A DNA stretch of 64,000 bases from Carpediemonas membranifera BICM (Eukaryota; Protista; Fornicata). A program made the translations under genes and the position numbers. Positions 11,982-63,600 of the stretch are shown here, in pieces. Below the pieces are notes generated by a model, which was not told the DNA's origin, ran no database searches, and saw only the letters and a list, made by a program, of their open reading frames with translations. The DNA is taken from assembly GCA_019828565.1 (NCBI GenBank), contig JAHDYR010000009.1:62001-126000 (forward strand), written 5' to 3'. Position 1 is the stretch's first letter. Every line of letters begins with the position of its first letter.

Positions 11982-12090
11982 GTTTCGTGTTTTAAAATCA
12001 TGTTTAATGCTTGATGCCCACCACTGCCAGCCTGGCTATGCGTGTTCTTGATGCCATGTGAGTGGAGCGGTGGGTCGGGTCGACCTGATC

Positions 12091-12159
12091 CATACTGCCC
12101 AATCCCCTAGGTTATCTGTTAGCAGTTTTGTCACATAACCTAGGGGATTGGGCAGTATG
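12091..12159. repeat. 25-bp perfect inverted repeat (hairpin or mini-MITE)
   Basis: CATACTGCCCAATCCCCTAGGTTAT (12091-12115) and its reverse complement (12135-12159), flanked by TC on both sides. Confidence 0.85.
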
Positions 12160-16608: not shown

Positions 16609-17440
16609 ATGCTGCGCAATTCTGACAAAATGTTCCATCGATGGCTCATCGACTCCTCCAGGCCTCAGACGGACAATTCGACATCAAGTCTAGAATCATT
16701 TAGTCGTACAATCGCGAATGTAACCGCGTTTTCCCGCCAAGGACCGCGTCCCATTCAGTTTTGCTTGCTTTCACACCTTAAAGGACCTAGCGGCCCTGGC
16801 GGCGGGAATATCGAGACATCTCTGAACTCCCTTGTATCCTTTAACGCCATCCGCGTTATTGAATACCCTGAAGAGCACCTATCCGTCGTGATGACGACCG
16901 ACCACGTCCGTCATGTCGCCCCTTTTCACACAGTACGTTCAACTCGCCAAGCAGCAGGCTACGCAGGCCTACCGCGACATAGCTGCAGGCACAACATCTA
17001 TCCAGAAGTCCGACGTGGCCAGTGTATTCGCCCAATTCGAGCACCTGCTGCTACCCATGACGGCCGTCTCCACCATCCCTGCCTCATACGCCGAGAAGCT
17101 GTTCACCTCAGGTAGTGCACCCCGTATCCTGGGCGAGTATGGCCTGATGCACGGCGGGACGATGCAAGACCGGGGCCTGGTCTACCGACTCACAATACCG
17201 GGCTTCAAAACCCTCAAGGAACAGATTATCGCCGGTAGGAAGGCTCTGTTCGAGAGGCTGAAGAAGGCAGGCATGGAGGGAGATAGCTCGGTGCTGAGGA
17301 GCAACGCGAAGCCTCTCAAGGGAAGTTCATTCGACCCTTCGTTCCACGTATTGGACCTTGTGGGGGACGGGGTGGCTATGGTCACTGCCATCGGAGGGCG
17401 TCCGACGCTGAGGTTGGTCAACCCTCTGTTTGATGTTTGA
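16609..17440 (+). CDS. STK19: STK19-like winged-helix protein; intron 16906-16933
   Basis: 28-nt intron GTCCGT..CACACAG joins two ORFs in frame; C-terminus IPG...GRKAL...FHVLDLVG...TLRL resembles STK19. Confidence 0.65.
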
Positions 17441-32234: not shown

Positions 32235-35200
32235 TGCAGTGGGTCTTACCCAATGTTACATAGGATTACCATTTCATAGATTTATATAGTATTGACCATA
32301 TTCACCACATCATGGGTTTTCTTATATTAAACAATCTTTCCCTAGCCATAAGGCTACATTAGTACTAATCCCACCAACATGGTATACGGGAAGGCCAAAG
32401 CGCCGATACTAAAGGGCACGTCCGTGGCTGAATTAGTCACGTTCGTGGAAGCGCTCCAAGATTATCGAGCACTCGGCGGAAAACAGCGCTCAGACCGCCT
32501 AATAGACAGCTGCGTCCGTGACTACGTTGACGGAGTACTCGGCACGGACGACAACGATCCTCCCGTGGCGCTCATCAAGACCAAGACTACACGCCGGCGC
32601 GAACAAGACATCGCTTGTGTCAAGCGTCTCGGCAAGGCCTTTAGACCACGCCACGAGGTAGCAAGGCTTGAATACTTCCGCTTGAACGCCACATCCTTCA
32701 CGCCTAGCGAGGTGGTACGCATCAACAAGCGCTTTCAGACATTGCTGGCTATTCTGCAACCCGAGTCATCACAGGAGACACTGTGTAAGACGTACGCCCG
32801 CTGCTTCAAGCAGGGAACAGGCAGAACTATGTACCGCATTCAAGAGTTGATCGAAGATTCCACTCTGAGTGATGCCATGCCTCAGGTACTCGCCATTAGC
32901 ACCGAGCTGCGGGACGGCGAAGAGCTGAGAGAAGCGTACCTAGGAGACGGACAGAAGCACCCCAAGAGCATTCACCCGACAGGCGGCCATCCTAGCGGTA
33001 ACAGAAAGAGAGCAGGCCGCAACGGCCATCCTTATCGCCAGCCGCTGCCGTCTGAGGAGGGAAGCAACAAGACGCTGAACCGGGATAAGACAGAGCGTAA
33101 GCCCCATCCCGGTAGCACTGACAAGAAGCGCGACTACACCTGCTGGAACTGCGGCGGCAAGCACGCATGGCACAAGTGCCCCAAGCCGAAGCACACGTGC
33201 TCGATCTGCAAGAAGACTGGTCACCTGGAGAGATATTGTCGGGATAAATCTCCGCAATATTCTCTCTCTATCAGTGCAGATCAGTCCAAGTCCAAGATCA
33301 ACCTACCACTCGTTCCGGTTTCAGTAGGCAAGCAGAAGCTGACAGCGTTATTAGACTCGGGAGCTAACGTGTCAAGCATCCACCCTCGCCACGCAGCCAA
33401 GCTCGAGGTCATCTCCACCACGCAGGAGCGTGTCGCAACAGCAGGCGGCGAGAAACAGTCACAGGGTCGAGTCAACGCTACGATTAAGCTGCAACCATCA
33501 TCGTTCACCCCGCGCACTTGTACATTTAACGCCGAGCTACTTCTACTCGACACCGACTTCGACCTGATCCTAGGATACCCCCATATGGTTGAGTTGGGTA
33601 TTCTCCCTCAGGCTGAGTGGAACAAGGAGGGTAGCGACGAGCTGGACATTCCGTCGCCCGCCAAGTTCGACGCTGCCGTCTACCAGTTGAACCCCACTAC
33701 GAGCGATACACAGGCCAAGATTCTCAAGGAGTTCAGCGCAGTGTTCGAAGATCGCAACGAGCCAAGCAAGCTCGAACCGTACGACTTGATCCTGAAGAGT
33801 GACAGGGTCGTGAACGCGCGACCATACTACATCCCCCCGGCGAAGGTAGCCGTCGTCAAGGAGCACATTGACGCTCTCCTGGCGAAGAGATTTATCCGTG
33901 CCTGTCAATCGCCTTACGCTTCGCCCGCGATGACAGTACCCAAGAAAGGGGGTAAGTCCCGATTCGTAGTTGACTTCAGACAAATTAACGACATCACCGA
34001 ACCTTTCAACTACCCCATACCTCGTATTGACGAGGTTATCTCCCCAGCTAGCGGGGAAGAAGGTCTTCGCAACCCTCGACCTCTCCGCCGGTTACCACCA
34101 AGTCGAGCTGACCGAGCGCTGCCGCCAGTACACCGCATTTACTACGGCTCTGGGGCAGTACGAGTACTGTCGGATGCCCTTTGGGCTACGCAATGCTGGA
34201 GCCCATTTCCAGCGGGCTATGGAGTCCGCCTTCCGGGGGCTGGTCGGCACAGCCTGTTATATATACATTGACGACATCATCATCTTCGGGGCAAGCGAAG
34301 AGGAATATCTCCAGAATCTCCGCAAGGTCCTCCTTCGCGCACGCGAGACAAAGTTACAGCTCAATAGGGAGAAGTGCCAGTTTGGCCGTGCCGAGGTCGA
34401 GTTCCTAGGTTGGGTAATCTCCGAGGGGCAGAAACACATCGCCCCCCGACCGGGTAGCCGACATTGCAGAGCTCCAGTTGCCCAAGAGCGTCCGTGGGAT
34501 GCAGGGCTTAGTAGGCTTTCTGAACTATTTCAGAGATCACGTGGACCGTTTCGCCGAGATCGCCCTCCCCTTGACTGAGGCAATGGCCGGGCGCAGGCCT
34601 ATCGGCCAGCCTGAACAGGACGCAGCGCTGAAGAAGATCAAGGATGCTCTCACATCGGCGGACGCACTCGCCATCTTCGACGCGACTAAGGAGCACACTA
34701 TTATGACCGATGCCTCAGGGCTCGGCTACGGTGCAGTACTCCTCCAAGAGGGTAGGCCAGTATGCTATATGAGTAAGGCCTTTAATGAGGTGCAGTCGAG
34801 ATGGTCCACCAGTGAGAAGGAGACGTACGCCATTATAGCTGCCGTGCAACGCTGGCGCAAGTTCCTCAGTTGGGGCCATTTCACAATCCTGACCGACCAC
34901 AGGAACCTCCTGTTCATGTTCCGGAGCGTTAACGCCAAGGTCAAGCGATGGGCTGACACCCTGTCCGACTTAGACTTCGGTATTGAGCATGTTGCAGGTT
35001 TAGACAACGCCGGAGCCGACGGACTATCGAGAGTTTTCACCGTACGCTCCCAGGCGACCACTGATCAGATTAAGAAGGCACACGAGATGGCAGGCGCTCA
35101 TTTCTCGAGAAGACAGACAATCGACAGACTGAGAGCCGACGGGTTGAGCGTATCCCGCTCAGCTGTGGACGAGTTCATCTCTCATTGCCCCACGTGCCAA

Positions 35201-35550
35201 GTGCTAGAACGACCACCCGAGCAGACTGTGGCCGGGTTACATACGGCTGTAGAGACCCCGTTCAAACGCGTAGCGATCGACACTATGGGGCCATTCCCAA
35301 CGCGGGACGGTATGACGCACATTACGGTCATGGTCGACATGTGCTCACGGTGGACCGAGCTGGTTGCCGTCTCCGGGACCACAGCCGAAGCAGCAGCTGA
35401 CGCATTCGTCAACAACTGGGTACTGCGCTTCGGGTGCCCAGAGGTGTTACAGTCCGATGGAGGGCCAGAGTTTAACAACAAGCTATTCCAACGGTTGTCC
35501 AAGGAGTTGGGCTTTGATACGCACATCACTACGGCCCACCATCCACAGTC
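32235..35550 (+). mobile_element. Gypsy element D, 3'-truncated; 5' LTR 32235-32358; gag-pol from 32379
   Basis: 124-bp TG..CA LTR; palindrome ATTAGTACTAAT 32358-32369; two CCHC knuckles, LDSG, YIDD, RNase H; integrase cut after HHPQS. Confidence 0.9.
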
Positions 35551-36624
35551 CAGACCTTACAACCGCTACGGGCTCAACAGTCAACGATCAGGAGCGCCAG
35601 CCCGATTCCAGCGTGGTTCCGGCAACCGTCGTCGGCGATTCGCGTCCGTCTCGCCGTGCTAGAGGCAAGCGCCGTATCGGCGTCCGTGATCGAGTTCTCC
35701 CGCCGGCAGTCACGGGCGCGGACGTGGTGTTCGAGCCTCCCCGCATTGATCGCGCCACACGGCTGCGGGGTGAGCTCGATCACGTCATCTCGACGGTCAC
35801 GGCGACGTTATCGACATTCTCATCGCATCTAGAGCTGTCAGTGCAGCCGTTCCTCGATGTGTTGATGAGCGGTGCGCTTAACCAGGCATCGCTGACCTCC
35901 GTTCAGCGCCTCGACGGTGGCGTCATCGCTCTGTCTGGGGCAGTCGATGACTACTATCTGCTTGTCGGCTTCCGCAAGTACTTCGATCTTGGCTCCGGTG
36001 TCAGCGACCGGGAGATCATGAACCAGGTATTCAACGGTCGCCGTGCCGGCGATATCCGCCGGGAGGTCCTGGATGAGGCGGCACGCCTTCTTGCCGTTGG
36101 GGTCGACACGGCACGTAGCCACGTCCGCCGGCTCTATCTTCTTACGCATCATGTTCCGTATTATGCAGTGCTACAGCACGCGATCTGGAGCCGGGTGCTG
36201 CAGGGCCGGCAGTGCCTGTATCGATTTGCCCATGACTGCTACGCCCTTGCCTGCGCCGAGGAGCTGCCGACCCTCAGCCTCCCCCCGGTAGGTACCCCGG
36301 TTTCTTCGTCTTACACAGGATATGACCCGCTTTCAGGTCTACGAGCGCGACCGGTATTATCGCGTGCTGGCTGTGCGTGGTCACTGGTGGCTGTTCGTTG
36401 AGCAGGCCTACCGTGGTCGCGCTGGCTCCTTCTTGCTCCTTGTCGCCTACGACGGGTTCCCTGAAGCAAGTCTGACGCCGGTTAACGCAGACCTTGTCCG
36501 CGTGGCTGTGGTCAACCAGTACCTCAGGGCTCATTCCGAGCTCTGGGACGTTCTGCCTGAGTCCCTGCAGGTAGAGTTGGAAGAAGTGGTGACCAGTGAC
36601 GAGGAGTCTGCCGGTGACGAGTAA
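35551..36624 (+). CDS. Antisense accessory gene of D' (5'-truncated; one frameshift near 36285) with C-terminal chromodomain-like module
   Basis: Two overlapping ORFs; the C-terminus aligns by eye with the 59351-60679 product. Confidence 0.7.
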
Positions 36625-36686
36625 ATGTTCTGATGATCTTGGTTAGCGCCTTGATAGTCCGTTATTTACACGGCTATGTACAAGGG

Positions 36687-39600
36687 CTATCCGTCTGTAT
36701 TGTTCGCCAGGAAGATGTCGAGAGCTGCGCAGTCCTTAACGTTCTTATATGGTTCCCACGTGGCTTCTTCGTCCTCAAATCCGGCCCAGTGCACGAGGTA
36801 CTTCTTCTGCGACATGGTACCTGACCCGCGTGCTGCTGAAATGCGGTCGACCAACCACTCGTCCCTGCTAGTTGCAGCGAGTTGCTGGATCTGGTCGTCA
36901 GTTAGTGTACCGGGGTTGAACCTTCGCACTCGTGCGGCATCGACCTTGATGGTCTTACCATTCGTGGGTGACTCTGCCATGTCTTGGACTTCATATGCCA
37001 CGGTGACGCCTGATTGCTTGATGCTCTTAACGCGCCTCATCGGGCCTCTCCACCCTGGTGATAGTTTGTCAGGTGGGCGAGAGGGGTACTTGACCAAGAC
37101 GTAACGACTCAGGATCTCCGTACGCGACGAGACGGCCTTCGACCACGCGTCCTCCTTCATCGCTTGGATGCGAGCCTTCGCCAGCTGAATTGCCGCGTCG
37201 GCGGCTGCCCGGTGTGACTGCTTGGCGCTCGCTGACGCTTGCTTGGTAACGTATATTGAGCTAGGCACGGTGAGGTTATATCCCAGGACGATCTCAGCCG
37301 GTGATAGGCGGGTTGGGACTCGCGGCGTGGCGTTGATGATAAAGCTCGCGACAGGCAGGTGATGTATCCAGTTAGAGTCTCTTATGTGGAACTTGCGTGC
37401 CTTCAAGATGCGTAACACCTCCTTGTTGGCTCGCTCCACCATCCCGTTTGACTGTGGATGGTGGGCCGTAGTGATGTGCGTATCAAAGCCCAACTCCTTG
37501 GACAACCGTTGGAATAGCTTGTTGTTAAACTCTGGCCCTCCATCGGACTGTAACACCTCTGGGCACCCGAAGCGCAGTACCCAGTTGTTGACGAATGCGT
37601 CAGCTGCTGCTTCGGCTGTGGTCCCGGAGACGGCAACCAGCTCGGTCCACCGTGAGCACATGTCGACCATGACCGTAATGTGCGTCATACCGTCCCGCGT
37701 TGGGAATGGCCCCATAGTGTCGATCGCTACGCGTTTGAACGGGGTCTCTACAGCCGTATGTAACCCGGCCACAGTCTGCTCGGGTGGTCGTTCTAGCACT
37801 TGGCACGTGGGGCAATGAGAGATGAACTCGTCCACAGCTGAGCGGGATACGCTCAACCCGTCGGCTCTCAGTCTGTCGATTGTCTGTCTTCTCGAGAAAT
37901 GAGCGCCTGCCATCTCGTGTGCCTTCTTAATCTGATCAGTGGTCGCCTGGGAGCGTACGGTGAAAACTCTCGATAGTCCGTCGGCTCCGGCGTTGTCTAA
38001 ACCTGCAACGTGCTCAATACCGAAGTCTAAGTCGGACAGGGTGTCAGCCCATCGCTTGACCTTGGCGTTAACGCTCCGGAACATGAACAGGAGGTTCCTG
38101 TGGTCGGTCAGGATTGTGAAATGGCCCCAACTGAGGAACTTGCGCCAGCGTTGCACGGCAGCTATAATGGCGTACGCCTCCTTCTCACTGGTGGACCATC
38201 TCGACTGCACCTCATTAAAGGCCTTACTCATATAGCATACTGGCCTACCCTCTTGGAGGAGTACTGCACCGTAGCCGAGCCCTGAGGCATCGGTCATAAT
38301 AGTGTGCTCCTTAGTCGCGTCGAAGATGGCGAGTGCGTCCGCCGATGTGAGAGCATCCTTGATCTTCTTCAGCGCTGCGTCCTGTTCAGGCTGGCCGATA
38401 GGCCTGCGCCCGGCCATTGCCTCAGTCAAGGGGAGGGCGATCTCGGCGAAACGGTCCACGTGATCTCTGAAATAGTTCAGAAAGCCTACTAAGCCCTGCA
38501 TCCCACGGACGCTCTTGGGCAACTGGAGCTCTGCAATGTCGGCTACCCGGTCGGGGGCGATGTGTTTCTGCCCCTCGGAGATTACCCAACCTAGGAACTC
38601 GACCTCGGCACGGCCAAACTGGCACTTCTCCCTATTGAGCTGTAACTTTGTCTCGCGTGCGCGAAGGAGGACCTTGCGGAGATTCTGGAGATATTCCTCT
38701 TCGCTTGCCCCGAAGATGATGATGTCGTCAATGTATATATAACAGGCTGTGCCGACCAGCCCCCGGAAGGCGGACTCCATAGCCCGCTGGAAATGGGCTC
38801 CAGCATTGCGTAGCCCAAAGGGCATCCGACAGTACTCGTACTGCCCCAGAGCCGTAGTAAATGCGGTGTACTGGCGGCAGCGCTCGGTCAGCTCGACTTG
38901 GTGGTAACCGGCGGAGAGGTCGAGGGTTGCGAAGACCTTCTTCCCCGCTAGCTGGGAGATAACCTCGTCAATACGAGGTATGGGGTAGTTGAAAGGTTCG
39001 GTGATGTCGTTAATTTGTCTGAAGTCAACTACGAATCGGGACTTACCCCCTTTCTTGGGTACTGTCATCGCGGGCGAAGCGTAAGGCGATTGACAGGCAC
39101 GGATAAATCTCTTCGCCAGGAGAGCGTCAATGTGCTCCTTGACGACGGCTACCTTCGCCGGGGGGATGTAGTATGGTCGCGCGTTCACGACCCTGTCACT
39201 CTTCAGGATCAAGTCGTACGGTTCGAGCTTGCTTGGCTCGTTGCGATCTTCGAACACTGCGCTGAACTCCTTGAGAATCTTGGCCTGTGTATCGCTCGTA
39301 GTGGGGTTCAACTGGTAGACGGCAGCGTCGAACTTGGCGGGCGACGGAATGTCCAGCTCGTCGCTACCCTCCTTGTTCCACTCAGCCTGAGGGAGAATAC
39401 CCAACTCAACCATATGGGGGTATCCTAGGATCAGGTCGAAGTCGGTGTCGAGTAGAAGTAGCTCGGCGTTAAATGTACAAGTGCGCGGGGTGAACGATGA
39501 TGGTTGCAGCTTAATCGTAGCGTTGACTCGACCCTGTGACTGTTTCTCGCCGCCTGCTGTTGCGACACGCTCCTGCGTGGTGGAGATGACCTCGAGCTTG

Positions 39601-40617
39601 GCTGCGTGGCGAGGGTGGATGCTTGACACGTTAGCTCCCGAGTCTAATAACGCTGTCAGCTTCTGCTTGCCTACTGAAACCGGAACGAGTGGTAGGTTGA
39701 TCTTGGACTTGGACTGATCTGCACTGATAGAGAGAGAATATTGCGGAGATTTATCCCGACAATATCTCTCCAGGTGACCAGTCTTCTTGCAGATCGAGCA
39801 CGTGTGCTTCGGCTTGGGGCACTTGTGCCATGCGTGCTTGCCGCCGCAGTTCCAGCAGGTGTAGTCGCGCTTCTTGTCAGTGCTACCGGGATGGGGCTTA
39901 CGCTCTGTCTTATCCCGGTTCAGCGTCTTGTTGCTTCCCTCCTCAGACGGCAGCGGCTGGCGATAAGGATGGCCGTTGCGGCCTGCTCTCTTCTGTTACC
40001 GCTAGGATGGCCGCCTGTCGGGTGAATGCTCTTGGGGTGCTTCTGTCCGTCTCCTAGGTACGCTTCTCTCAGCTCTTCGCCGTCCCGCAGCTCGGTGCTA
40101 ATGGCGAGTACCTGAGGCATGGCATCACTCAGAGTGGAATCTTCGATCAACTCTTGAATGCGGTACATAGTTCTGCCTGTTCCCTGCTTGAAGCAGCGGC
40201 GTACGTCTTACACAGTGTCTCCTGTGATGACTCGGGTTGCAGAATAGCCAGCAATGTCTGAAAGCGCTTGTTGATGCGTACCACCTCGCTAGGCGTGAAG
40301 GATGTGGCGTTCAAGCGGAAGTATTCAAGCCTTGCTACCTCGTGGCGTGGTCTAAAGGCCTTGCCGAGACGCTTGACACAAGCGATGTCTTGTTCGCGCC
40401 GGCGTGTAGTCTTGGTCTTGATGAGCGCCACGGGAGGATCGTTGTCGTCCGTGCCGAGTACTCCGTCAACGTAGTCACGGACGCAGCTGTCTATTAGGCG
40501 GTCTGAGCGCTGTTTTCCGCCGAGTGCTCGATAATCTTGGAGCGCTTCCACGAACGTGACTAATTCAGCCACGGACGTGCCCTTTAGTATCGGCGCTTTG
40601 GCCTTCCCGTATACCAT
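36687..40617 (-). CDS. D' gag-pol (Gag-PR-RT-RH-IN-chromodomain); two 1-bp deletions in gag relative to D
   Basis: Intact pol with YIDD, TDAS, DDE and YLVHWAGFEDEEATWEP. Confidence 0.9.
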
Positions 40618-40761
40618 GTTGGTGGGATTAGTACTAATGTAGCCTTATGGCTAGGGAAAGATTGTTTAATATAAGAAAACCCATGATGTGGTGAATATGG
40701 TCAATACTATATAAATCTATGAAATGGTAATCCTATGTAACATTGGGTAAGACCCACTGCA

Positions 40762-43700
40762 ACGGTCTGAGGGAATCCGTAGTGGCCGGCGAACTGGATG
40801 AATGCGCGGCAGGCAGACTCGGAGGAAGTTGAAGGGACAGCAACTAGCTCTGTAAAGCGTGAGAAGTTGTCAACCGTGACGATGATAAACTTGTTACCAA
40901 AGTCATCCTCCGGGAAGGGACCCATAGTGTCGATGGAGACGGCCACGAACGGGTCAGAGGAGAACGTAGGACGCAGGGTAGAAGTCGTCTTCTTGGCTGT
41001 CTCGCGGACCTTCTGACAGATGGGGCATGAGGCAATAAAGCCCTTGATGTCATCCAGCATGTTGGTCCATTCGATGCCGCGGAGCTTGAGGCGCTCCATG
41101 GTGGTCACGGCGCCCATATGGCCGGCGACGGGACCATGCACGGACTCAATGTCCACATGATGGTCAGACAGGGAAGTGACAGCCTTGAGACAGCGAGAGA
41201 GGACATCTGCGGCCGCGTTGTCGAGGCCGGGGATGTGATGAATCACGAAGACATACTCTTGGAGACGGAGGCTCCAGCGCACGACCTTCGGGGTCTCACT
41301 GCGCGACATGTAGATCAAGTTCTTATGATCGGTCTGGACCTCGAAGAACTGGCCTCGGATGAACGGATCGAACTTGGTGATGGCGAAGAAGATTCCATAT
41401 GCTTCTTGCTCGATCGTGGCCCAAGCTGACTCAGTCATCGTGAAGCGGCGCGAGACGAAGGCGACAGGTGCCTCCCTTGCCGGAGACGGGATCTTGCTGC
41501 GCGAGGAGAGCGCCACAGCCGAGCGAAGAAGCGTCGGTCTTGATCACCAGGGGCTTCGAGTAGTCTGGGAAAGATAGGAGGGGTGCCTGGACGATAGCGC
41601 GCTTGACGGTGTCCCAAGCAGTCTGTTCGGACTCACCCCACTCGAAAACGGTCTTGGAGCCGCAGAGGTCGTACAGGGGAGCCATGATACGGGCGAAATC
41701 TGCGACATGGTCACGGTAATAGTTCGCGAGACCGCAGAAGCTTCGCAGCTCGGAGGGGTTTGACGGAACGGTCATTGAGCCGAGGGCTTCCTTGCGCCAG
41801 CTGGAGATGCTGATGCCCTGTGAGCAGACCGTGTGGCCGACGAACTCGAGCTCGGTGCGGAGGAAGACGCACTTGCTCAGCTTCAGGCGTAAGTTGTGGG
41901 CGCGGACGAGTTCGAAGACCTGATGCAGAAGGGAGTTGTGGCCCTCGATCGTAGACGCGTGTACGATGACATCATCAAGGTAGCACTCGACCCCGCGGCC
42001 CAAGAGTGGAGCTAAGATCCGCATCATGCCTCGCTGGAAGTAGGAAGGCGCGTTCTTGAGACCGAAGGGGACTCTAACGAACTCGTACAGGCCGTTGTGC
42101 GTGGCAAATGCAGTCCGAGGAACAGCTGTTGCGTCGAGGGGGAACTGGTGGTAGCCACTGCGCAGGTCAAGCGTGGTGAAGTACTTGCTGCCATTCAGGC
42201 GAGACAAGATGGACTTAATGTTCTGCAGGGGGAATCGGAAGTCGCGGCTGACTGAGTTGAGGAGGCGGTAGTCTACGACCATCCTATGTTCACCGTTCGT
42301 CTTTGGCACGACGAAGCAAGGGGCGGAGTAAGCCGACTCCGATAGGCGGATGATGCCAGCCTCAAGGAGGGCCTCGACCTCTCGATCGATGACCTCAGTC
42401 ATGGCCGGGGAGAGCCGGCGAGGGGGAACGTGGGTCGGAGTTTCGTCCGTGACGGCGATCTCCATAGGCTGAACCTTGGCAGGCTCACGAGGGATGGGAC
42501 CGAAGATGTCTTCGAACTCGCGAGCGAGGGCTGCGACGTTTTCATCGAGCTCGATCTGGCCATCTTCGTCAAGGGGTGTAACCTCGCCGAGGTCCTGAGG
42601 CTCAGTCGCGGGAGGATCCAGTAGGTTGAACGTTTGGATCACGTCGAACCCAAGGATGAGGGGCTCACCGGTGTTGAGGACGTGGGCGCTGATAGTACCT
42701 CCGACTGAGTGGGGAGACCTGTTGACCTTGATGTCAAGGAGCGTGCGATGGGCAGACGTGGCGATGCCATTGGCCGTGCTTATCTTGAGCTCATCAGGGA
42801 TCATGACCAGGCCCAGAGACTTGGCCAGCACTGGGCTGATGAAGGATGAGGAGGCGCCTGTGTCGACCAGGGCGTCGACGCGGTCGGTGCTCTGGGGAGC
42901 AGGGGAGCCGACGGGCGCGAAGGCTCGTACGTTGGTGCTGAGGCGCATGACTGGTCCGCTTGTTGCCATCTTCAGAGAGATGGGCGTCGTCCGGCGGCCC
43001 GTAGCGAAGAAGCCGGGCTTGGACTTGTTGGGGCAGTCAGGCCTAAGGTGGCCGGAGAGGCCGCATCCATGGCAGACAGGCTGCGGCTTGGCAGGGGTAC
43101 CGGCAGGCTTATGGTTGTCTGGTTTGTTGGATGGGAAGTGTGGAGCAGGCGCTGCGGTAGCGTGAGGACGAGTGGGGTGGAAGCTCGGAGGCGGACGTGT
43201 GGCCTGAGGGCGCGGGACCTCGGGCTGACCGAACTCGGCGATGGTGCGCTTGGCCTCAGTCAAGGTCTCGACCTCTTGGAAGGCGGCACGCTTGGCGTCG
43301 GCGAGCGTCTCAGGTTCGGAGGCCTTGACCCGGCGGCGCAGTGAATCTGGGGACAGTCCGCGGATGAAAGTGCGGCGTAGTGTCTTCTCGTCGGGGAGGT
43401 AAGTGGAACAGAGGTCCTCGACGCGGTCGAACCTGTCGAGGTAGGCGAGCAGAGCGCTGTTGCTGGCCGTCGTGGAGGACATGGCGGTTGCTTCCAGCTT
43501 AGACAGAACGGCCTGAGTGCTCTTGGGAGCGAAGAAAGCGGAGTAGATCGCCGACAGGACGTTTTCATCTGGAAGGTCGTCAAAGTTGTCAATGCGAAGG
43601 CGGATCAGGCGTAAAACACGGCTGGAAATGAGCATACGGACAGATAGTGCTCTGTCGTCGGGAACTTGGGCGGAATAGGCCTCGAACTTGTCGTTGAAGC

Positions 43701-50994: not shown

Positions 50995-52798
50995 ATGAAG
51001 CCAGCCTTCCTTATTTGTGTGATCGCGGTCATCGGTGTTATCACTGCGAAGAGCTCTGTCGTTGTTGAACATCCCGTAGGAACCCCTGTTGTCCACGGCT
51101 ACCACTCGGACCAGCTCCTCGTCGGCTACGACAACGGGCTCGTCGCCTCATTCAATCCCCACGAAGGGAACCTTAGTTTGTCCGATACACATACTTCTTA
51201 CTGCAGAATGGCGCCTCCGCCTCTCCGAGAAATCAATCGACGCCCTCGACGCCATTATGCCTGATCGCAACTACCTAGCCACCGTAGGAGACCAGGAGTA
51301 CATCATTTCCCGCTTCGGCCACCTTTTGAACGTCTTCCCGGCTGGCACCACCGACCGTACCGGGCTGAAGCAGACTTACCGCCATCTCACGACGACGCCC
51401 TCCCACATCACTACCGTCGAGGGTGGCCTCGCCCTCCTGAGAGACAGCGATGACAGCAAGATCTTTGAGATCCCCACGATCGCCGTTTCTACCGATGCCC
51501 GCGTGCTCTCCCCCGACACCCACCACGCCATCCTCTGGGAGCCCGCCCAGCTCTGCACTATCACCCCTTCGGCCAGGTGTGTTGGCCTATCAGCTCCCGT
51601 CGATGACGTTAAGATCATGGGCAACTTTATCGTCACCGTGAGCTTCGGCACTCCCGCCACCGTCGTCGTCTACGACTTCGACCTGACCCAGCTCGACTCC
51701 AAGGACGTTCCCCACGCCCATGCGGTGTCCTTCGACGTGGCCCACCACACCCTCGCCCTCGTCTCAACCCAGGGCGGCTATGGATTCACCCTGACATCTG
51801 CCGGCACCCTCACCGCCTCTGCCCAGCATATGCCTGCCTTCGTGCTCTACGACACGGACGCCACGACCCTCACCGGCTACAGGTCCACCAACGGGTCACC
51901 CCGCGAGATATTCTCCCGTAATGTCACCGACCTCGCAGCCACTAAGGAGGCCTCGTCCTGCACGATCATTCCCACCAAGACACACGCTGCCACTGACCCC
52001 GTGTCGTTTGTGGCCGTATGCCACGACGACGCGGTCCAGGCCACCCTCCTCGTCTTCCGGGCAGATGTTCCCAAGGGAAGACTCGTCGCCAGAGTCGCCC
52101 TGCCCGGTCTGACTGATTCTGTGGAGTCGATCGCCCAACTCGTGATCTCAGACCCACTCGCAGTCAGTGCCACGCACTTTAAGGGCTTCTTTATGGCTGT
52201 GTCGTACATCGATACGTCTGCCCGCACCAGGGGCCGCCCCACCACCCTGGTCCTGGCCCTGCCCGCTAACGGCGACCCTGTACAAATCGGGGAACCTATG
52301 ACCAGGAAGTACGTGCTCCCTGGTCCTCTCACGGCGATTACCGCCGCGGACCACGGAGCCGCCAGTGCCATGGCCGGCCACCATGTCGGCAAGGTCGGGT
52401 TCATCGCCGGCGGGCAGACTGGCCACGTCTCCTTTGTATCGGAAGACGAGCTGCTGACTGACTTCGGATTCAACCCGCCCCGCGGTGCCAAGATCGGCAA
52501 GAACTATAAGCTCGGCGACAAGCCTCTCGAGGCCACAGCCTTCAAGTTCGACCCTGCAACCTTTATCACCGAGCACAAGGCGTACTCGCGTCCGCAAAGC
52601 CTCTCTATCGGCCGCTCCGACTCGATCGATCACTTTGTCGTGGGTGCCCTGGGCGAGGCCAGTGTGGCCCTGATTGATGTCGGGCCGACCCACCATGCGA
52701 TGGGTGTGGTGTCCAAGGAGGACTCCCTCGTACTGGGGACCGTGGCGATGGGGGCGGTACTCATGCTCGCTGGCGTGTTCGTATGGTCGCGGAGATAA
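50995..52798 (+). CDS. EMC1: EMC1-like type I membrane protein (590 aa); intron 51176-51206
   Basis: Signal peptide; VASFNPHEGNLKWR after removing the 31-nt intron GTTTGT..CTGCAG; EMC1-like pre-TM region and C-terminal TM. Confidence 0.6.
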
Positions 52799-53851: not shown

Positions 53852-54211
53852 ATGGGTGATGCTGCCTTCGAGGAGGAGAAGCTGGAGGCATGCCGCATCA
53901 AGTCGCTTGATGGTGACAAGCTTGCAGTTTTCCGACACGATGGGGAGATTATCGACATCAAGCGTCCGAGGAAGTTCAGCAAGATCCACCCCTGTGTTGG
54001 CCACTTCATCCTCTTGGACGTATCAACGATGGAACTCGCACACATCCTGAACGATCGCCAGACCAAGCTCCTGATGAAGAGCGAGCACTGGCCGGCTGAG
54101 TTTGCTCCCGAAGCCTCTGAGGATGAAGAGGCAGACCCATTTGAGGCGGGGAACCCCAACCAGAGGAAGTACGCCGAGGCGCACTCCGACGACGATGACT
54201 CAGACTTCTGA
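53852..54211 (+). CDS. EIF1AD: EIF1AD-like S1/OB-fold protein
   Basis: PRKFSKI...GHFILLD...HWPAEF, acidic tail with NPN. Confidence 0.65.
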   Translation: MGDAAFEEEKLEACRIKSLDGDKLAVFRHDGEIIDIKRPRKFSKIHPCVGHFILLDVSTMELAHILNDRQTKLLMKSEHWPAEFAPEASEDEEADPFEAGNPNQRKYAEAHSDDDDSDF

Positions 54212-55357
54212 GGCCTGCCGCAGGCGATTTGTACACGGTGCTCCCCACCTTTCCTTAATTCATGCCTATTCTCACCGATTTAAAGATACGGCGTGATTAA
54301 ATCTGCAAGGGCAAAACCATGCTGAGGACGCATCAAAAACAAACCATCAACGTCGTATGCCGTGAATAACAACTAATCAACATCAAAACCAATGGAATCC
54401 AGCTTATTGTAGCTGAACACTGCTCCTTCCCCCATGGGTCCGAAGTTTCCAGCCTTTTCAGCGACTACCGCCTTAGTTCGCTTTGAACCGCAGCATCTTC
54501 CGCTGTGCAGGCAACTTCTTCGCCAAATGAGGTACTTTCTCCAAGTATCTGTCAAGTGCTTCGAGTTTGTCTAGCTCCAATGTGAATGGCTCCCACGTGG
54601 CTTCCTCAGGAAGGTACCCTTCCCAAATAACATGCAGTAGCAGCTTCCGTCCCTCGAACTTGTGCTCGTTGATCTCCTCCACCACGTATTCGTCGTCTCG
54701 CTCCGCAGCAACCTGCTTCAGCTGATCGAGCGTCAAGCTTGTCTCGAACACCCTGAGCCTGTCAGCGTGGATGCTGTGGGTCTTCCCGGACGTCAGGTTA
54801 CGGACACGATAAACGTTCGGGGACTTGTCTGGGCCTATGCACCACATCGGCCCGAGCAGAGTAGATCTCCTACCGGAGTTCGACGCCACCAGGACTGCGG
54901 TGTCTTGTAGCTCGATGTGATCGCGACTTGGCGACTCTCCATCACACAGTTGTTGCTGAACCACACGATTAACTTCAATCCTACGCCTAAAGAGCTCCAA
55001 CGAGACTGTATCGTCACTCAACTCGTCAAGCGTCGAGTCTTGCTCCTGGTCGTACAGTACCGTCCACGGGGACATGCCCGTGGTACTATTCTTCGTCGAG
55101 TTAAGGATGAACTGAGCGTGTGGAATCAGTTTCGTCCAGTCACGTGTCTTGCACTCCGTCATCAGGCACTTCAGATGCTTCTTCAGTTCCGCGTTCTGAC
55201 GTTCGACGACGCCTTGCGATGCCGGTCGGTGTCAGCCATTTATATATGAGATACGTATTTGATACGGTCTTGATCCGTCCAGCTCGACACCCTTGTGTCG
55301 AGCTCTCTTTGTAAAGTCTTTTTCCTTAGTGATCACAGTAAGCTTACTTCCAAACTA

Positions 55358-58300
55358 ATGGATAAGGGACCTTTATGTACACAGCCTGAGATTCACGCAG
55401 TCCTCTCATTTGCCGAGAAATTGGATAAGCATGTTCGCGCGGGCGGAAAGAGGCGCTTGCTTAAGCGACTCGGACCCGCGGTGACCTCATACTGCAAGGC
55501 GATGGGTACTGATATTACCAGAAAGTATCAGGCCGCAAAACATCACGATGATGGCTCCAAAAGAACGAAGCACGAACGCGAGGACATCGTATTCCAGGCG
55601 ATTGTGGACATTGTTAAGCCCTCCGATGCGATCCTTGAGCGCCGCCTTTTCGACCTATCGACCACTGGTATCGATATTGGCCGCCTATCTCTCTATATCG
55701 ACCGCTTCGCTTCCCGCCGCCGTCTCATTGCACCCACGGGCAAGGATTCAGTCCTTCGCGGCCAGTTTTTGCGCGGAATCCAAGACGAAACGCTCAGAGA
55801 GGAGGTTTCTCACGCCTCCAAGGGTCTGTCACTTGACGCGACCTTTTCGACCGCCCTCCTGACATGTAAGCGTCTGGAGGAAGCAATCAAGCTCACTTCA
55901 ACGTCCAAGCCTGCCCCTGCTCAAGAGCGCGAACGCTCTAAGCAGTCCGCTGTCCGCAAACGCCCCCCGCGTGAGCAGCGCGAGCCTCAGGATCAGCCGC
56001 GCCAAGACAAGCGGCAGCAACACCAGCCCCGCCAGTATCAGACGCACTTCCACCAGCAAGGCCAACGTCACGGTCAGCGTCAGCAGCAGACGCAACACCA
56101 CGGTCACCAGCGAGACATCGTATGCTTTAACTGCGGCAGGCCGAACCACCGCGCTTTCGAATGCACCAGAGAGAAGGCCGTGTGCGCGAAGTGCGGCAAG
56201 TCGGGGCACCTAGACAAGTTCTGTCAGGTAAACCCCAGATCATGCTTCTCTGTCTCTGTTTCTACGTCGGCGGCTGAAGGCCAGCGCTCCCCTACCCGTC
56301 GTGAGTGCCGTCGTCCCTATGGGTAGCGACGAATCTACCACATGGCACCGTGTCTTATTCGACTGTGGTGCTGACATTTCTCTTGTCAACCCGGCTTCCG
56401 CCAGAGCGGCCGAGCTCATTCCGACGAAGCTCGCTGCACCCATTAAGATCAAGACTCCGGGTGGAACGATCGAGACTGATACGTGTTATGAGGTGCCGTT
56501 GAAGATGTGTAAGTCACCTTTCACCCCGAAAGGTCTATCCACCACAGTCTCCGCGTATGGGGTTGACTGTGCTTATGATCTCCTCTTGTCATATCAGACC
56601 ATGGTCGAGTGGGGTATTCTCCCCAGCTTGTGTGAACCGTCTCAGTCTGACAATGAAGACGCCTTGGAGCCTTTCGTGCCAGAGCCTGAGCCGCTCCAGG
56701 CGTATACTCTGTCTTCGGACTACACTCTCACTCATGACCGCATCCTCGCAGCTTATGCTCATTGCTTTGATGCTCGAGAAGGGTTCTCAGCATTAGAGCC
56801 ATACGACCTCGTACTCAAGGAGGACCGCGTCGTCGCCACGAGATCCAATTACATACCGTACCAGAAGCAGGGCCTGTTCGACGAGCACGTCAACGAACTA
56901 CTGTCGAAGAAATACATCGAGGCCAGCTTCTCGCCATACTCTTCTCCAGCATTGCTCGTCCCCAAGGGCAAGGACAAGACCAGGATGGTCGTAGACTTCC
57001 GCAGAATCAATGATTTGACCACGCCATTCGACTATCCGATCCCCGAGGTTAACACGTGCTTGACCAGGCTTGCTGGTGCCAAGGTCTTCGCCACTCTCGA
57101 CCTCTCGAAAGGGTATCACCAGGTCGAGCTGACCGAGCGTTCTAGGCAATACACGGCGTTTATGACCCCCCGTGGGAAGTTCCAATACACCGGAATGCCG
57201 TTCGGCCTGAAGAACGCTGGCGCGCACTTTCAGTACACGATTGAGCGCGGGTTCCAGGACCTCTTAGGCGACGCCTGCATTATATATATAGATGACATTA
57301 TCATCTTTGGACGCTCGGAGCAGGAATATCTGGCCAACCTCGCTAAGGTGCTCCGCCGATGTGACGAGCTCAAGCTATCGTTGAACAAGGAGAAGTCGCA
57401 TTTCGGCCTAGCCGAAGTGGAGTTCCTAGGATGGGTTGTGTCCGGCTCGGGTTTCCGGATTGCTCCAGACAGGATCCGCGATGTAGAAGGCCTGCGGCTA
57501 CCGAAGACGAAGAAGGCCACGCAGGCCCTTATGGGATTCCTCAACTTTATGAGAGACTTTGTTCCTAACTTCTCCGAGCTTATCCGACCGTTAGCCCGGG
57601 CGGCAAGCGGCAAGGAGGCTCCGGACGGATTACCTCAGGCAGAGGCGCTGGCCAAGGTTAAGGACCGCCTCTGCCACGCACCGGCACTCGAGCACTTTGA
57701 CGTTTCGAAGGATCATGTGGTCATGACAGACGCGTCTGATCTCGGGATCGGGGGTGTTCTCCTCCAGGACGGCAAGCCGGTGTGTTATATGTCCCACGCG
57801 TTCTCAGATGTGCAGACGCGTTGGAGCACGATCGAACAGGAAGCGTATGCGATTGTCACCGCCCTCCAGAGGTGGCGCCGTTTCCTGTGCTGGACGTCGT
57901 TTACTCTCCTCACTGACCACCGGAACCTGGTCTACATGTCACGATCGTCTAACGCAAAAGTCCAGCGTTGGTACGAGTCAATCGCAGACCTAGACTTCAC
58001 AGTGAAGCATGTGGCCGGGGTTGACAACGGAGCGGCGGACGGGCTGAGTCGAGTCTTCTCCGCAACTGCCAGACAGGCAACAGCTACCGATGACGAGATC
58101 CAGGCAGCTCATATGCACGGCCAGGCCCACCTCCCGGTTTATACGACGGTAGAGTGGCTGAGATCTAACGGGCTCCGGGCTCCAGTGGATAGGGTAGCGC
58201 GGGTCATGGATCGTTGCCCCGTGTGCCAACTTACCGCCAAGCCGGCCGAGGCGTCCAGACCGTACCTCCACACGGCGAGCCTGCGACCGTTCCAGCGGGT

Positions 58301-59321
58301 AGCCATGGATACTATTGGCCCCCTACCAGAGTCTCGCGGGTACAAGTTCATCTTAGTTATTATTGATATGGCCTCGCGGTGGACCGAGCTCGTCCCACTC
58401 AAGTCCACAAGGGCGGACGAAGCTGTGACTGCCTTCGTCAACGGATGGATTCTCCGGTACGGCGTGCCCAGAGTTCTACAGACAGACGGTGGCAAGCAGT
58501 TCGTCAACAAGCTATTCACAGATCTATCGGTGCGCGTAGGGTTTGCTACTCACGTCACCACCCCGTACCATCCACAGTCAAACGGCATTGTGGAACGGGC
58601 GAACAGCCGCATTGAGCGCATTTTACGCAACAGGCAATACCAGCTTCGGAGCGAGTTGTGGTCAGACTCCCTCCCTGTCGCGCAGTATATCGTCAACGCG
58701 TCTCCCCACACCGCGACACGCTTAACACCGGCCGAGGTCATCTTCGGTAGCGATTTCCGTGTCCCGGCAGACGTGATGATGGCAGACGTCCAGAGTATGG
58801 CTGGACAGCCCAGCAGTAATGTTCAAGCAGCTCAGTTAGCCCGAGACTTGGCAGAGGCGAGAATCAAGGTCATGCACCAAGATGCGCTAGACAAAGTGTC
58901 AGCAACGACACCTATCTCGTCCGACTATGTGTTGGTCAAGTACCCGAATGGACCGCCGTCCAAGTTGGCGTCAGGATGGCGAGGGCCTATGAAGCTAGTG
59001 CGTCCTATCGTGAGGCAGAACCTCACGGTGGGCTATGTCGTCAAGGATGTCAACACAAAGAAGGAGTTCCAAGTCGCCTCGGAGAGAGTTCGCGCCTTTA
59101 TGGGTGAGTTGTCCGAGCAACGGGCTCAGGAACTCGCGGCAGTCACGCTCGGTGAATATCTGGTCGAGTCCATACTAGAGTCGACGAGTGAGGCCAGGAT
59201 GAGAGACAGGAAGTTCCGGGTTAGATGGCTGGGATATGAGCCGTCAGAGGACACATGGGAACCATATGGGAATGTCAAGGGTTGTGAAGCACTGGATGTA
59301 TTCCTGGGAAGGGCCAAGTAA
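55358..59321 (+). CDS. F gag-pol; pol is in the +1 frame from about 56290
   Basis: Two CCHC knuckles, FDCG protease, YIDD, TDAS, DDE, RVRWLGYEPSEDTWEP chromodomain. Confidence 0.9.
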
Positions 59322-59350
59322 ATGGCGCCCAGAGAGAGTCACAATCTGAT

Positions 59351-60679
59351 TTATTCAATGGCACCAAGGCTGTCACCAAGCTCAAAGAAGATGCCGTCAT
59401 GCTCCCAGCGCCGACGAACGCGACGCCATAAGTTATGCTCGTTGAGATAACGAGTGACAGGCATGGTGCGGCAAAGATCCTGGGTCAGGAAGGTCAGTGA
59501 CGGCAGCGGATAGCCCGAAAACTGGACGAGCAGGATGAACGACTCCTCCTGGCGGGCGTTCTCGTAGAGCTCGATGTGCTCTTTGACCTCCACCACACCG
59601 TACGCGGCGGACGTGTCCGTGAGCTGGAGCGTGAACAGCTCCTTGTTCATGGCAAGCTCCATAGCCGGGAGATGCTCAAGCCGGACACAGGTCCAATAGG
59701 CCCGAACGAAGTCGCGGGAGCGGGTGGCGGTCAGGCGCGAGGCACCGCGGTTCTCAGCCGCCATAAGCAGCGAGAACATGGCTGGGTGTCGGCCTGCCAT
59801 CACCACGCGCTTGAGGAGGTCCACCACCACATCACGAGAGACCGTGGCACCCGGCTCTCGAGTGCGCTTCAGCGCCAGGAGGGCTCCCTCAGCTGTGGCG
59901 ACGTGGTTTGTGGCAAACCGGTCGCTCGTCCCGCCCTGGACCAGAGCCGCGGCTACGGCGCGAGTGTCTTGGACACCCTCCATGGAGCGCTGGAGAGCGC
60001 ACCCGATGGCCGTCACCTCCGCGAACCGACGAAGGATGTCGGCAGAGACGTAAGCAGCCGTGACCTCGGTCATAGCGCTGCCGAAGAGCTTCCCGGTCTG
60101 AACTCGGTCGAGGAGGGCTGTGAAATTGACTTCGAAGCAGTTGGAGAAGCGAGCAGTGCTGATCTCCGCAAAGGTGGTGCGGAAGGTCTCGACCTGACGC
60201 TGCTCGCGTGCCGGAAGAGGTTCGGCGGACTCGGTCGGCTCGGCGACGGTCACAATGGCCCGAGGGGTTTCGACATTGGCGCGGTAACGGGTCTGTCGGT
60301 GGAATGGGCGGACGGGGACCTCGACGACACGCTGGTTGAACTCAGCGCCCAGCTCGCTCGTGCGGGTGATTGTTGTCTGAGCAGATTCGGGATGGCAGTC
60401 GGTGATGTGCCGTCCGGAGCGTCGAGGTCGGAGAACAGTGCGATCGGGAGCTGAACCAGCTTCTTGGTGCGAAATGGCATCACCATCGGTGGTCTCAGCG
60501 GTGTTGTCAGTGGATGGAGGCGTGTGAGAACCCTCAGTAGCTTCCTGGGAGCCGTCACCATTCAGCAGCTCGACATGCTTTCGCTTCAAGGCCTGAAGAT
60601 CGGAGATGAGCACACCAGTAGGATTGGCCGTCATATACTGGTCGATTGCAGCAAAGAGTTCCTCCTCTACGTTTGTCAT
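59351..60679 (-). CDS. Antisense accessory gene of F (442 aa) with C-terminal chromodomain-like module
   Basis: Uninterrupted ORF convergent with pol; homologous to the D' antisense ORF. Confidence 0.8.
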   Translation of the reverse strand: MTNVEEELFAAIDQYMTANPTGVLISDLQALKRKHVELLNGDGSQEATEGSHTPPSTDNTAETTDGDAISHQEAGSAPDRTVLRPRRSGRHITDCHPESAQTTITRTSELGAEFNQRVVEVPVRPFHRQTRYRANVETPRAIVTVAEPTESAEPLPAREQRQVETFRTTFAEISTARFSNCFEVNFTALLDRVQTGKLFGSAMTEVTAAYVSADILRRFAEVTAIGCALQRSMEGVQDTRAVAAALVQGGTSDRFATNHVATAEGALLALKRTREPGATVSRDVVVDLLKRVVMAGRHPAMFSLLMAAENRGASRLTATRSRDFVRAYWTCVRLEHLPAMELAMNKELFTLQLTDTSAAYGVVEVKEHIELYENARQEESFILLVQFSGYPLPSLTFLTQDLCRTMPVTRYLNEHNLWRRVRRRWEHDGIFFELGDSLGAIE

Positions 60680-63600
60680 AGCGCCGTTTGAAATCTGGGA
60701 GGCGTCCCAGATTTGATTTACATGTATACATGAGTTATATAATCTCAGGAGGACACCCACCGCGCAAGTTACAGACGCTGAGCACGCCTGTATAGCCAAT
60801 ACTGGACAAGGGACAGCCGTTCACGTATTCTCTCGCGCGTTTTATGCCGAGACGAGATCTCGAGGAAAAGGGGAAGAAAAACACCTCCAAGAAGTGATAA
60901 TGGACAAAGTTTATACGAAGAACGTGGTTTTGATGTTGGTTATTCATGATGGAGCTCGTATTCTGGGCACAAGAAGTCCGAGCGGAGACGAAGAGAAGAA
61001 AACTCCCGTATCTCGCCAAGGAAGCGGAATTGGAGCTAGTTAACTGCATTTTTGAAGCCTATGTAAGAAATAGCGGAAGAGGAGCACAAACCGCCAACTA
61101 TTCCGAATCAAGCCGAATGCATGACATAACCTGCACGGTTTGATGCAATCAGACAGAACACTGGTATGTATCGACTACTAGGAGGGGCAGGATCCCCAGG
61201 TAAGATACCCATGACACAGCGCGCTTATTTAGTGGTACCACGAGTCTTTTCGAATCTGTAGAATCTTTGCGCAATCTAGAAAATCTTTAGAGAATTTCCG
61301 TGGGTGGACTCCACGCCGGGCGATGGCTTAGGACGCTATGTCGTCAGCCTAGTCAACGGATACTATCCGGCGTACACGCAAGTCCCGTGTGCGCGACGGT
61401 CAGCCCTCTAAGTTGAACTTAGTTGGCATCCCCGGATCACTGGTCATTCCCCAGCGATCGACGGTTATAGGGTCAGCACTCTTGGGCTGTTCCCCCAAGA
61501 CCTGATTAACAATGGTATCCTTTTCGTGATGCTCTTAACAGAGCATGGGGGGGAAGTGTCAGCCATTTATATATGAGATACGTATTTGATACGGTCTTGA
61601 TCCGTCCAGCTCGACACCCTTGTGTCGAGCTCTCTTTGTAAAGTCTTTTTCCTTAGTGATCACATCGGTACGGCGTACCGATATGATGTTTCATCGATAG
61701 CTTCTCCACCATGGTGTCGACGAGCTGATTTCGGTATTGGGACCCACCGTCTGAATGGATTAAACGGGGTATACCGTAGTGGGCGACCCATTGTAATAGG
61801 GCCTCAGCTGCCTCTGCCGCAGTCGTGGAGTGGGTGGGGTATAACATCGTAAGCTTGGAGAACGTGTCGATGGCCACCACGATGTGGCGGTAACCGCCGC
61901 CAGATTCAGGTAGGGGTCCAACAGTGTCTACTTGTACTACGTCAAATGGAAGGCGTCCCATCGTCGAATGCCGGTCCTGCGGCACTCGCTCAGCTGTCTG
62001 CCGATGGACTTGGCAGACCGGGCAGGCCTTGACGAACTGTTTCACCTCATTGTACATCCCCTTCCACGTCTCTCCTTTTTCAATCAGGCGTTGTAGGGTA
62101 GCCCGAATGCCCAGATGTCCTTGTAAACCCCCATGTATGCTTTCGATCAGGTCAGTATGGCTCGTATCGGCACTTTGTAGGTGTACTAGACGGGACAAGC
62201 CGTCTGCACCGCCGTTGGCCACTCCTGGTACGTGTTCCACGGAATAGTTGAACCGTGCCATGGCCAGATGCCACCTAACCACCTTAGCGTTGGCAGAGGT
62301 GGCCAGGTAGAGCAGATTTTTGTGGTCAGTGCGCACAACGAACTCTCGTCCGATCAGTAGTCGCTCTGCCTTCTGCATTGCGAAATAAATCGCGAACGCC
62401 TCCTTCTCATACGTCGACCATCGGCGTTGGGTAGCGTCGAATGTCTTCGAGTAAAAGGCGATCGGACTAGGACCTGACGCGGATTCTTGCATCAGTACGG
62501 CACCTGCTGCGACATCACTTGCGTCGGTCTGCAATATCAGCTTCGACCCAGGCTTGGGGTGTACGAGCATTCTGTTGTCCAGCAGGCAGGTCTTGACGCG
62601 CTCAAATGCGTCTTGTTGGTCTGGTCCCCACTAAAACTTCCTGTTGGCCCGGGTGAGGGCCGCAAGGGGCTCAGTTATGTCCGCGTAGCGCTCAATCATG
62701 GGGCGGAAGTAGTTAACAGTCCCCAAGAGCGTACGAAGCGTCGACAGGTCACGGGGGGGTGCAAGATCGTGAATTCCTTGCAGGCGATCCTCTGCGATCC
62801 TCTTGCCGTCGGCGCTAACGGTCCATCCTAGATAATCGATCTCGGACGCAGCGAAGATGCACTTCTTCGCATTGAGACGGAGTCCTCGAGTGTGGAGTTT
62901 TCCGAGAACGGTCTCCAGGCGACGTAGAAATTCGGTTTTGTCCCGGCCGTAGACCACTACGTCGTCCACGTACACCAAACAGTCGGTGTACACGCTGCTT
63001 CCTAGCGCTGCCTCCAGGGCTCGTTGGCAGTACGCTGCAGCATTTTTTAGCCCAAAGGGCATCCTCGTATAACAGTATTTGACACCGTCAACGATAAAGG
63101 CCGTCATATCCTGGCATTCGTGTTTCAAGGGGATTTGAAGAAACGCCTTGCTCAAATCAAGGGCTGCAAAGTATGAGTTGCCCTGCAGCCTCTCTACGAG
63201 GTCGTCTATTAGAGGCAAGGGGTGGGTCAGGTCAGTCGTGATCTCGTTCAGACGTCTAAAGTCAAGGCACATGCGACGTGTACGGTCCCGCTTCCAAGCT
63301 AACACAACCGGGTTGTTGTACTGGCTCTCGGAACGTCTTATAACCGCCATGTTGCAAAGCTCCTCGACCTGTCGCTTCATCTCTTCCACTTCGCCCTCGC
63401 CGTAGCGGTAGGGCGGTACGTTGACCACTCTGTCATGTCGAAGGTCCAACCCGAATGGCTCCACATCGGCCGGCTCATCAATACCTCCGAACAACCCCCC
63501 TAGCTTCGCTAACACCTCTTCGACCTCCACGGTCAGGTCCATTATCACCGGCTTGGCATCATTGGTCTTCTGCGCGCTCGACAGGTAGACTTCTTCGTCA

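Follow-up and report, generated by a model that had tools for sequence, protein, structure and literature searches.

Here we present an antisense gene of a long terminal repeat (LTR) retrotransposon, element F of the free-living anaerobic flagellate Carpediemonas membranifera BICM, as a real, undescribed variant of the antisense extra open reading frames (ORFs) known from other gypsy elements. The gene lies in a 64,000-nucleotide stretch of contig JAHDYR010000009.1 (positions 62,001 to 126,000 of the forward strand; hereafter the window), between pol and the 3′ LTR of F and on the strand opposite to gag-pol. It encodes a protein and is retained in four lineages, among which the known Pol proteins share 47-56% identity. 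Its product probably ends in a domain descended from a retrotransposon integrase chromodomain, and the gene is very likely expressed as a separate spliced mRNA. Judging from sequence, we favour, with a probability of about 0.35, a role as a chromatin-binding anti-silencing factor for its own element over a non-chromatin accessory role, a targeting cofactor or a self-restraining decoy.

Extra genes on the antisense strand are common among LTR retrotransposons, and published accounts still describe their function as unknown (PMC7264820, PMC11963269). The family described here offers a handle on such genes: its predicted methyl-lysine cage lies in a small domain amenable to direct assay, and its element is a compact 6 kb. 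If the proposed function is true, landing would depend on one chromodomain of the element and continued activity on another, and antisense extra ORFs would gain a first testable function. The introns, if true, would mean that a retroelement keeps a conventional spliced gene hidden on its antisense strand.

A protein-coding gene convergent with pol

The ORF (P0001; 59351-60679, minus strand) is an uninterrupted ATG-to-stop frame of 442 amino acids that converges with F pol, as the initial annotation had proposed, and its stop lies 29 nt beyond the pol stop. Its length, its place behind pol and ahead of the 3′ LTR and its orientation opposite to gag-pol are those that mark the class termed aORF-3R, and the same holds for the related element L001 described below. 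A stop-free run of this length has a chance probability of P ~3.5e-6; the frame spans 489 codons, compared with a longest frame of 311 in the shuffled pol-to-3′ LTR region (0/1000 shuffles reach it). GC content is 0.66/0.47/0.70 at the three codon positions, and among the six frames this one has the best host codon score (0.16, the score of F pol being 0.025). The antisense pieces of D′, the corresponding gene of a D-family element in the same window, have a coding-type base pattern and codon score like those of F.

Conservation acts on the protein. Identity by codon position in the C-terminal domain is 0.53/0.52/0.35 between F and D′ and 0.52/0.51/0.35 between F and L001. The initial annotation had named neutral evolution as an outcome that would refute its reading; what we find is that third positions have diverged and first and second positions are kept. 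In the same two pairs the domain is 34-36% identical in amino acids, compared with 24-27% for Gag; between F and D, Gag is 24% and Pol 51% identical. Protein-level constraint and retention across related families, as expected of an aORF-3R gene, are both observed, the genomic context being known for three of the four members (all except P0034). The absence of a transmembrane segment, from which it had been argued that the protein is not an env product, also stands: the best Kyte-Doolittle 19-mer reaches only 1.3, and the ORF has neither the sense orientation nor the transmembrane segment of an env-like ORF3.

Relatives of the antisense gene

Four members of the family were found: F, D′, P0034 and the 3′ gene of the full-length element L001, with C-terminal domains 34-45% identical to that of F. 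A HMMER scan of 1.84 billion proteins returned two relatives, P0034 (362 amino acids, E 8e-31, annotated as a C. membranifera hypothetical protein) and P0035 (E 5e-6), the latter being the end of the L001 antisense gene. L001 was also the sole locus obtained from 290 candidate stretches in an independent scan with an alignment of F and D integrases. It has identical 75-bp LTRs, a single gag-pol-chromodomain frame and an antisense gene placed as in F; its Pol is 56% identical to that of F and 47% to that of D. The reverse transcriptases of L001, F and D cluster together with an ultrafast bootstrap of 99 in a tree of 11 sequences that contains no named reference elements and omits P0014 as too short. 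Word-index searches gave no homolog for P0001 (7995 candidates scored) or for the F/D′ profile (627 candidates), and viral contigs gave none. The proposal of a conserved, retrotransposon-encoded antisense accessory gene gains strength from the two added homologs, from constraint at the protein level and from the antisense intron-like segments.

The D′ gene, described initially as one ORF at 35551-36624, does converge with its pol (36687-39995, minus strand, with a canonical integrase chromodomain) but consists of two frames, 35553-36287 and 36292-36624. Its first coding piece (35553-36287, plus strand) is 5′-truncated, comprises the central helical region and matches exon 2 of L001 (score 85, 0/500 shuffles); its last coding piece (36319-36624, plus strand) holds the chromodomain-like domain. 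The reported C-terminal match between F and D′ was reproduced at 35% identity over 81 amino acids (pairwise E 5e-10, 0/1000 shuffles). Two inverted D copies meet at 35550/35551, and the missing 5′ end was lost at this junction. These copies occupy 32225-40771, with different 5′ flanks and an asymmetric deletion at the junction, and differ by four homopolymer indels and two substitutions over 3.3 kb; the junction may be a real rearrangement or an assembly artefact.

From its N-terminus the protein has a short helical part, a low-complexity linker that is basic and variable, a core predicted to be helical and, last, the conserved C-terminal domain. The N-terminal part (60560-60679, minus strand) is a predicted helical hairpin (pLDDT 64-73) with a KRKH basic patch at its end, shared with P0034 (0/2000 shuffles as good), and all four members carry basic patches in their N-terminal portion. 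The central predicted helical region of F (residues ~157-335; 59675-60211, minus strand), modelled by AlphaFold2 (AF2) at low confidence, belongs to no known family: a PDB search with it gave no match, and it matches no integrase or Gag. This region is common to F and P0034 and, through L001, to D′. The pairs F-P0034, P0034-L001 and L001-D′ each score above all 500 shuffles, and F and D′ are therefore linked transitively; the other pairs are weaker (F-D′ 18/500, F-L001 11/500, P0034-D′ 295/500). The L001 core has a weak helix-hairpin-helix match (E 0.2, below cut-off). The chromodomain-like domain covers F residues 360-418 (59426-59602, minus strand), where alignments and profile tests place aromatics at the cage positions (Y360, F387 and Y390).

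An AT-rich box (TTATATAA; 60735-60742, minus strand), which lies ~60 nt upstream of the F antisense ATG, is a candidate internal promoter; AT-rich boxes likewise precede the antisense ATG of L001. In the flank of L001 (5940-6630 of that locus), a Cys-rich frame without a Pfam match is presumably the end of a non-LTR retrotransposon protein.

Candidate introns of the antisense gene

The frame changes in the family, one in D′ and two in L001, each occur where the antisense strand has a short GT-AG segment in phase 0. The candidate intron of D′ (36288-36318, plus strand; 31 nt, GTAGGT...CTTACACAG) lies at its frame change, and its removal leaves one open frame of 346 codons to the stop. The L001 segments are 29 and 28 nt long; without them the gene is a frame of 391 amino acids, while the unspliced frame stops after 60 codons. 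Because removal of GT-AG segments opens one frame in each of the two genes, splicing of the antisense gene is likely. At the sequence level the D′ and L001 segments have the features of host-type spliceosomal introns, being short and GT-AG with a branch-like motif and restoring the frame. Treating the D′ break as an intron gives a better fit to the other members than treating it as a frameshift (38.8 versus 32.0 bits), and an identical 100-amino-acid product beginning just past the segment is recorded on another contig. A 49-nt intron in D′, proposed by eye, was dropped in favour of the 31-nt segment.

Short host introns occur in the window at 16906-16933 (plus strand, 28 nt) and 51176-51206 (plus strand, 31 nt), and removal of each opens one long frame. 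The latter ends in a CTTAC..CAG motif similar to that of the D′ segment and is skipped in contigs of the sequencing runs X1 and X2. Because the intron is skipped, these runs, which look like one data set, are probably RNA. None of the listed runs is registered as RNA. The contigs of X1-X5, assembled and unstranded, do not reach the F or D′ antisense genes and are silent on their expression.

The F ORF itself is unbroken. Upstream of it, a 33-nt candidate segment (61059-61091, minus strand; GTTTGT...CTTAC..TAG) follows the host-type pattern; it is one of six matches in the window, with 1.64 expected in shuffles, to a pattern fixed after two examples had been seen.

Assembly error has to be weighed against splicing. 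The D copies differ by four homopolymer indels and a published assembly of C. membranifera used MinION reads (PMC8516963), so the D′ break alone could be an error. The two canonical-looking segments of L001 are harder to explain in this way. Introns facing the antisense strand would escape removal from the genomic RNA and so survive retrotransposition, which is the logic of retrotransposition reporters (PMC12786077).

Relationship of the C-terminal domain to chromodomains

The C-terminus had initially been likened to the integrase chromodomains of the window, with its cage Trp residues replaced. The likeness rises above chance in targeted tests and falls below every database threshold. A profile of 17 outside integrase chromodomains (P0008, P0009 and P0012, members of window families, excluded) ranked the five integrases of the window first among 884 six-frame segments and F and D′ sixth and seventh (F 4.5 bits, E 1.7, 1/2000 shuffles; D′ 3.3 bits, E 3.9, 13/2000); when the window domains were added, D′ remained sixth and F dropped out of the top 12. 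With the F/D′ profile, the best domain was the chromodomain in 15 of 17 outside proteins, many of them near-redundant, and the top non-self match in the window was the chromodomain of family G. A four-member profile aligned by hhalign with E 0.009-0.011 over 56-60 colinear columns, which 0 and 1 of 150 column shuffles reached. The AF2 model shows strands followed by helices (pLDDT 58.7), and a fold search with it placed four chromodomain structures among 40 weak rows, all within model residues 11-78. A motif test picked three of the four members, 19 of 22 integrase domains and no other of the 884 segments, a post hoc result that is descriptive only.

The chromodomain cage is formed by Y24, W45 and Y48 (PMC3350952, PMC6317226). 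As assigned by alignment, these positions are Y/F/Y in F, Y/Y/Y in P0034, Y/F/Y in P0035 and Y/Y/F in D′. One cage Trp, W45, is indeed replaced, by F or Y, but the cage stays aromatic at all three positions in all four members; the second missing Trp is that of the TWE strand motif.

Several results weigh against descent from a chromodomain. Pfam, PDB-sequence, Atlas and fold searches with the domain returned nothing significant. The two added members, P0034 and P0035, score worse rather than better in chromodomain comparisons, and the hallmarks Gly, Glu and TWE have been lost in part or entirely, the chromo-box Gly being kept in two of four members and TWE in none. The domain fails formal PF00385 membership, with no match at the curated cut-off for F, D′, P0034, P0035 or L001 exon 3; divergent true chromodomains can escape this model, since the integrase domain of the B element in the window is missed as well. 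Taking both sides together, we consider descent from a retrotransposon integrase chromodomain probable. Should the gene be real and its domain instead adopt another fold, PH/EVH1-like (a beta-sheet plus helix) or new, the protein would serve some other accessory role, for example as an adaptor in nuclear import, RNA handling or translation; we regard this as a possible though doubtful alternative.

As to the source of the domain, origin by fold-back of the element's own pol end was rejected: F and D′ compared with their own integrase tails score no better than shuffles (59-388/500). The only one of 32 pairings to pass was D′ with the G integrase tail (score 52, 6/2000 shuffles), and P0034 and P0035 did not match that tail. 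A likeness of 'LTQD' to the G linker was dropped, as it lies inside the D′ candidate intron.

A possible anti-silencing function

We propose that a chromodomain-bearing Ty3/gypsy clade keeps a third, antisense gene in the interval from pol to the 3′ LTR, which likely has a promoter of its own and a spliced transcript. Its product, likely ending in a degenerate chromodomain, would act in the nucleus, where the kept aromatics would bind methylated nucleosomes on integrated copies and compete with the readers of host silencing or block them. The basic patches and the weak helix-hairpin-helix match of L001 would fit a nuclear, chromatin-bound protein. A second chromodomain translated from a separate antisense mRNA would lack an obvious route into the particle, and its expression could continue during silence of the sense LTR. 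Chromodomains of chromovirus integrases are reported to direct integration, and those of the F, D and L001 integrases are intact and Pfam-grade. Because the antisense protein would be produced independently of Gag-Pol, and targeting is already provided for by the intact integrase chromodomain, action on integrated copies appears the more likely. The scenario as a whole, in which a metamonad gypsy lineage copied an integrase chromodomain to form a free-standing antisense gene with introns, the product of which would read or mask repressive histone marks on the element's own copies, is put forward tentatively. E(z) has been reported absent from the metamonads studied (bioRxiv 10.1101/2021.07.16.452543).

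Two further explanations accept the degenerate chromodomain. It could act as a chromo-shadow-like protein-binding cofactor through which the integration complex reaches or chooses target chromatin; this is unlikely, the integrases already carrying their own Pfam-grade chromodomains, the separately expressed protein having no evident route into the particle, and Y24 and Y48, said to be lost in shadow domains, being kept here. Improbable to a similar degree is self-restraint, in which the free domain would compete with the integrase chromodomain as a dominant-negative decoy and antisense RNA might add silencing, giving copy-number control. Overlapping transcripts are indeed likely from tail-to-tail genes 29-62 nt apart, and antisense RNA regulation has been discussed for such ORFs (PMC7264820) and for Ty1 (PMC12786077), but an RNA-only role leaves the protein-level constraint unexplained and direct evidence for self-restraint is absent. 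The reading of the ORF as a neutral remnant, for example a nested integrase fragment in inverted orientation or a frame arisen by chance, to which the resemblance of the D′ end to a G-family integrase tail and a window full of nested elements might point, is largely refuted and highly improbable given four divergent members, frames that open once the intron-like segments are removed, diverged third positions beside kept first and second ones, and a central region without integrase or Gag match.

Comparison with known systems

Plant and fungal gypsy elements are known to carry antisense extra ORFs in the interval from pol to the 3′ LTR (aORF-3R, or eORF-3′R), with function unknown (PMC7264820, PMC11963269, PMC6317226). 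Examples are maize Grande gene23, rice RIRE2, Silene Retand (TRP28), PvRetro13 and fungal Boty (PMC7264820, PMC11963269); the Grande antisense protein is nuclear and its gene has its own promoter (PMC7264820). The F-type gene shares with them position, orientation, family-wide conservation and absence of a transmembrane segment, but has no sequence link to them and resides in a metamonad protist; PF04195 (Retand TRP28), sought in the antisense proteins at E<=1 or 10, gave no match. Unlike Retand, described as a non-chromovirus, F has a chromodomain integrase. The intron-like segments and the chromodomain-like end distinguish the F-type gene, neither appearing in the accessible aORF-3R descriptions compared.

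Among the integrase chromodomains of chromoviruses, group I keeps the cage and group II loses Y24 and usually Y48. The F-type domain resembles group I in being colinear with aromatics at the three cage positions, and its closest matches are of retrotransposon type, ending YL..H..L. It differs from integrase chromodomains in being unfused and on the opposite strand, in having F or Y for W45, in lacking TWE and the conserved Glu, in a short insertion after the first strand and in lying below PF00385 detection. In Selaginella SM1-Galahad a normal group I chromodomain is found in a separate ORF of ~113 amino acids downstream of gag-pol (PMC3350952). There, too, the domain sits outside the polyprotein, but Gag-Pol has no chromodomain, whereas the F-type domain is a second, divergent copy in an antisense protein of 360-440 amino acids. 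VANDAL VANC, the AlkB of an orchid gypsy element and DAM-LTR may be compared by analogy of function only, as accessories encoded by transposable elements and acting on host epigenetic control; the F-type gene shows no positive sequence or fold relationship to them.

The literature searched, including PMC13547354, PMC11728184, PMC5408684 and bioRxiv 10.64898/2026.05.21.726589 and with most subscription papers outside its scope, contained neither an antisense example with introns or a chromodomain-like end nor any account of the F, D or L001 elements; the domain table in the supplement of PMC6317226 could list a similar gene.

The carrier element and its surroundings

The window is eukaryotic, its host proteins clustering with named C. 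membranifera proteins, and from ~26 kb onward it contains a nest of Ty3/gypsy elements. Within it, F (55230-61664) is a complete Ty3/gypsy element and a recent, intact insertion. Its 108-bp 5′ LTR (55230-55337, plus strand, TG..CA) is matched exactly by the 3′ LTR (61557-61664, plus strand), which is preceded by a polypurine tract (61547-61556, plus strand), and a 4-bp target duplication, TCGG, flanks the element (55226-55229 and 61665-61668). The gag gene (55358-56326, plus strand) encodes a CCHC knuckle, and pol (56319-59321, plus strand) encodes protease, reverse transcriptase, RNase H and integrase in this order with a canonical C-terminal chromodomain (PF00385 at ~59157-59303, E 1.1e-07, above cut-off). 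F inserted into the integrase gene of another gypsy element (G/H); with F removed this gene is a single frame of 562 amino acids, and run contigs span the empty site.

At 56232-56326, F pol is in the +1 frame relative to gag, and D copy 1 and L001 have gag-pol in one frame; the difference may be a programmed frameshift or an indel error. No tRNA primer site was identified at 55338-55357, directly after the 5′ LTR. A palindrome lies directly 3′ of this LTR, and a quick check for self-priming was negative. Further gypsy integrases at 26502-30749 and 30864-32048 (both minus strand) have chromodomains with eroded cages or TWE motifs, that of the former going undetected by Pfam.

The G/H family has its own unrelated antisense gene of 119 amino acids (53852-54211, plus strand). 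In run contigs 19 of its 25 variant sites fall at third positions, with 16 codons silent and 7 changed. A second annotated copy, P0033, gave nothing in Pfam and PDB sequence searches and resembles eIF1A (PF01176) in Atlas (feature score 0.90, TM-score 0.57). P0015 and P0019, unnamed gypsy polyproteins, carry a precomputed PF00856 (SET) domain beside a chromodomain. The F-type gene adds to hints that transposons of C. membranifera encode a number of unrelated accessory proteins directed at host control. Elsewhere in the window, a 1.9-kb tandem duplication of 99.9% identity (8264-12145) contains near-identical copies of a gene that we take to encode glutamate dehydrogenase.
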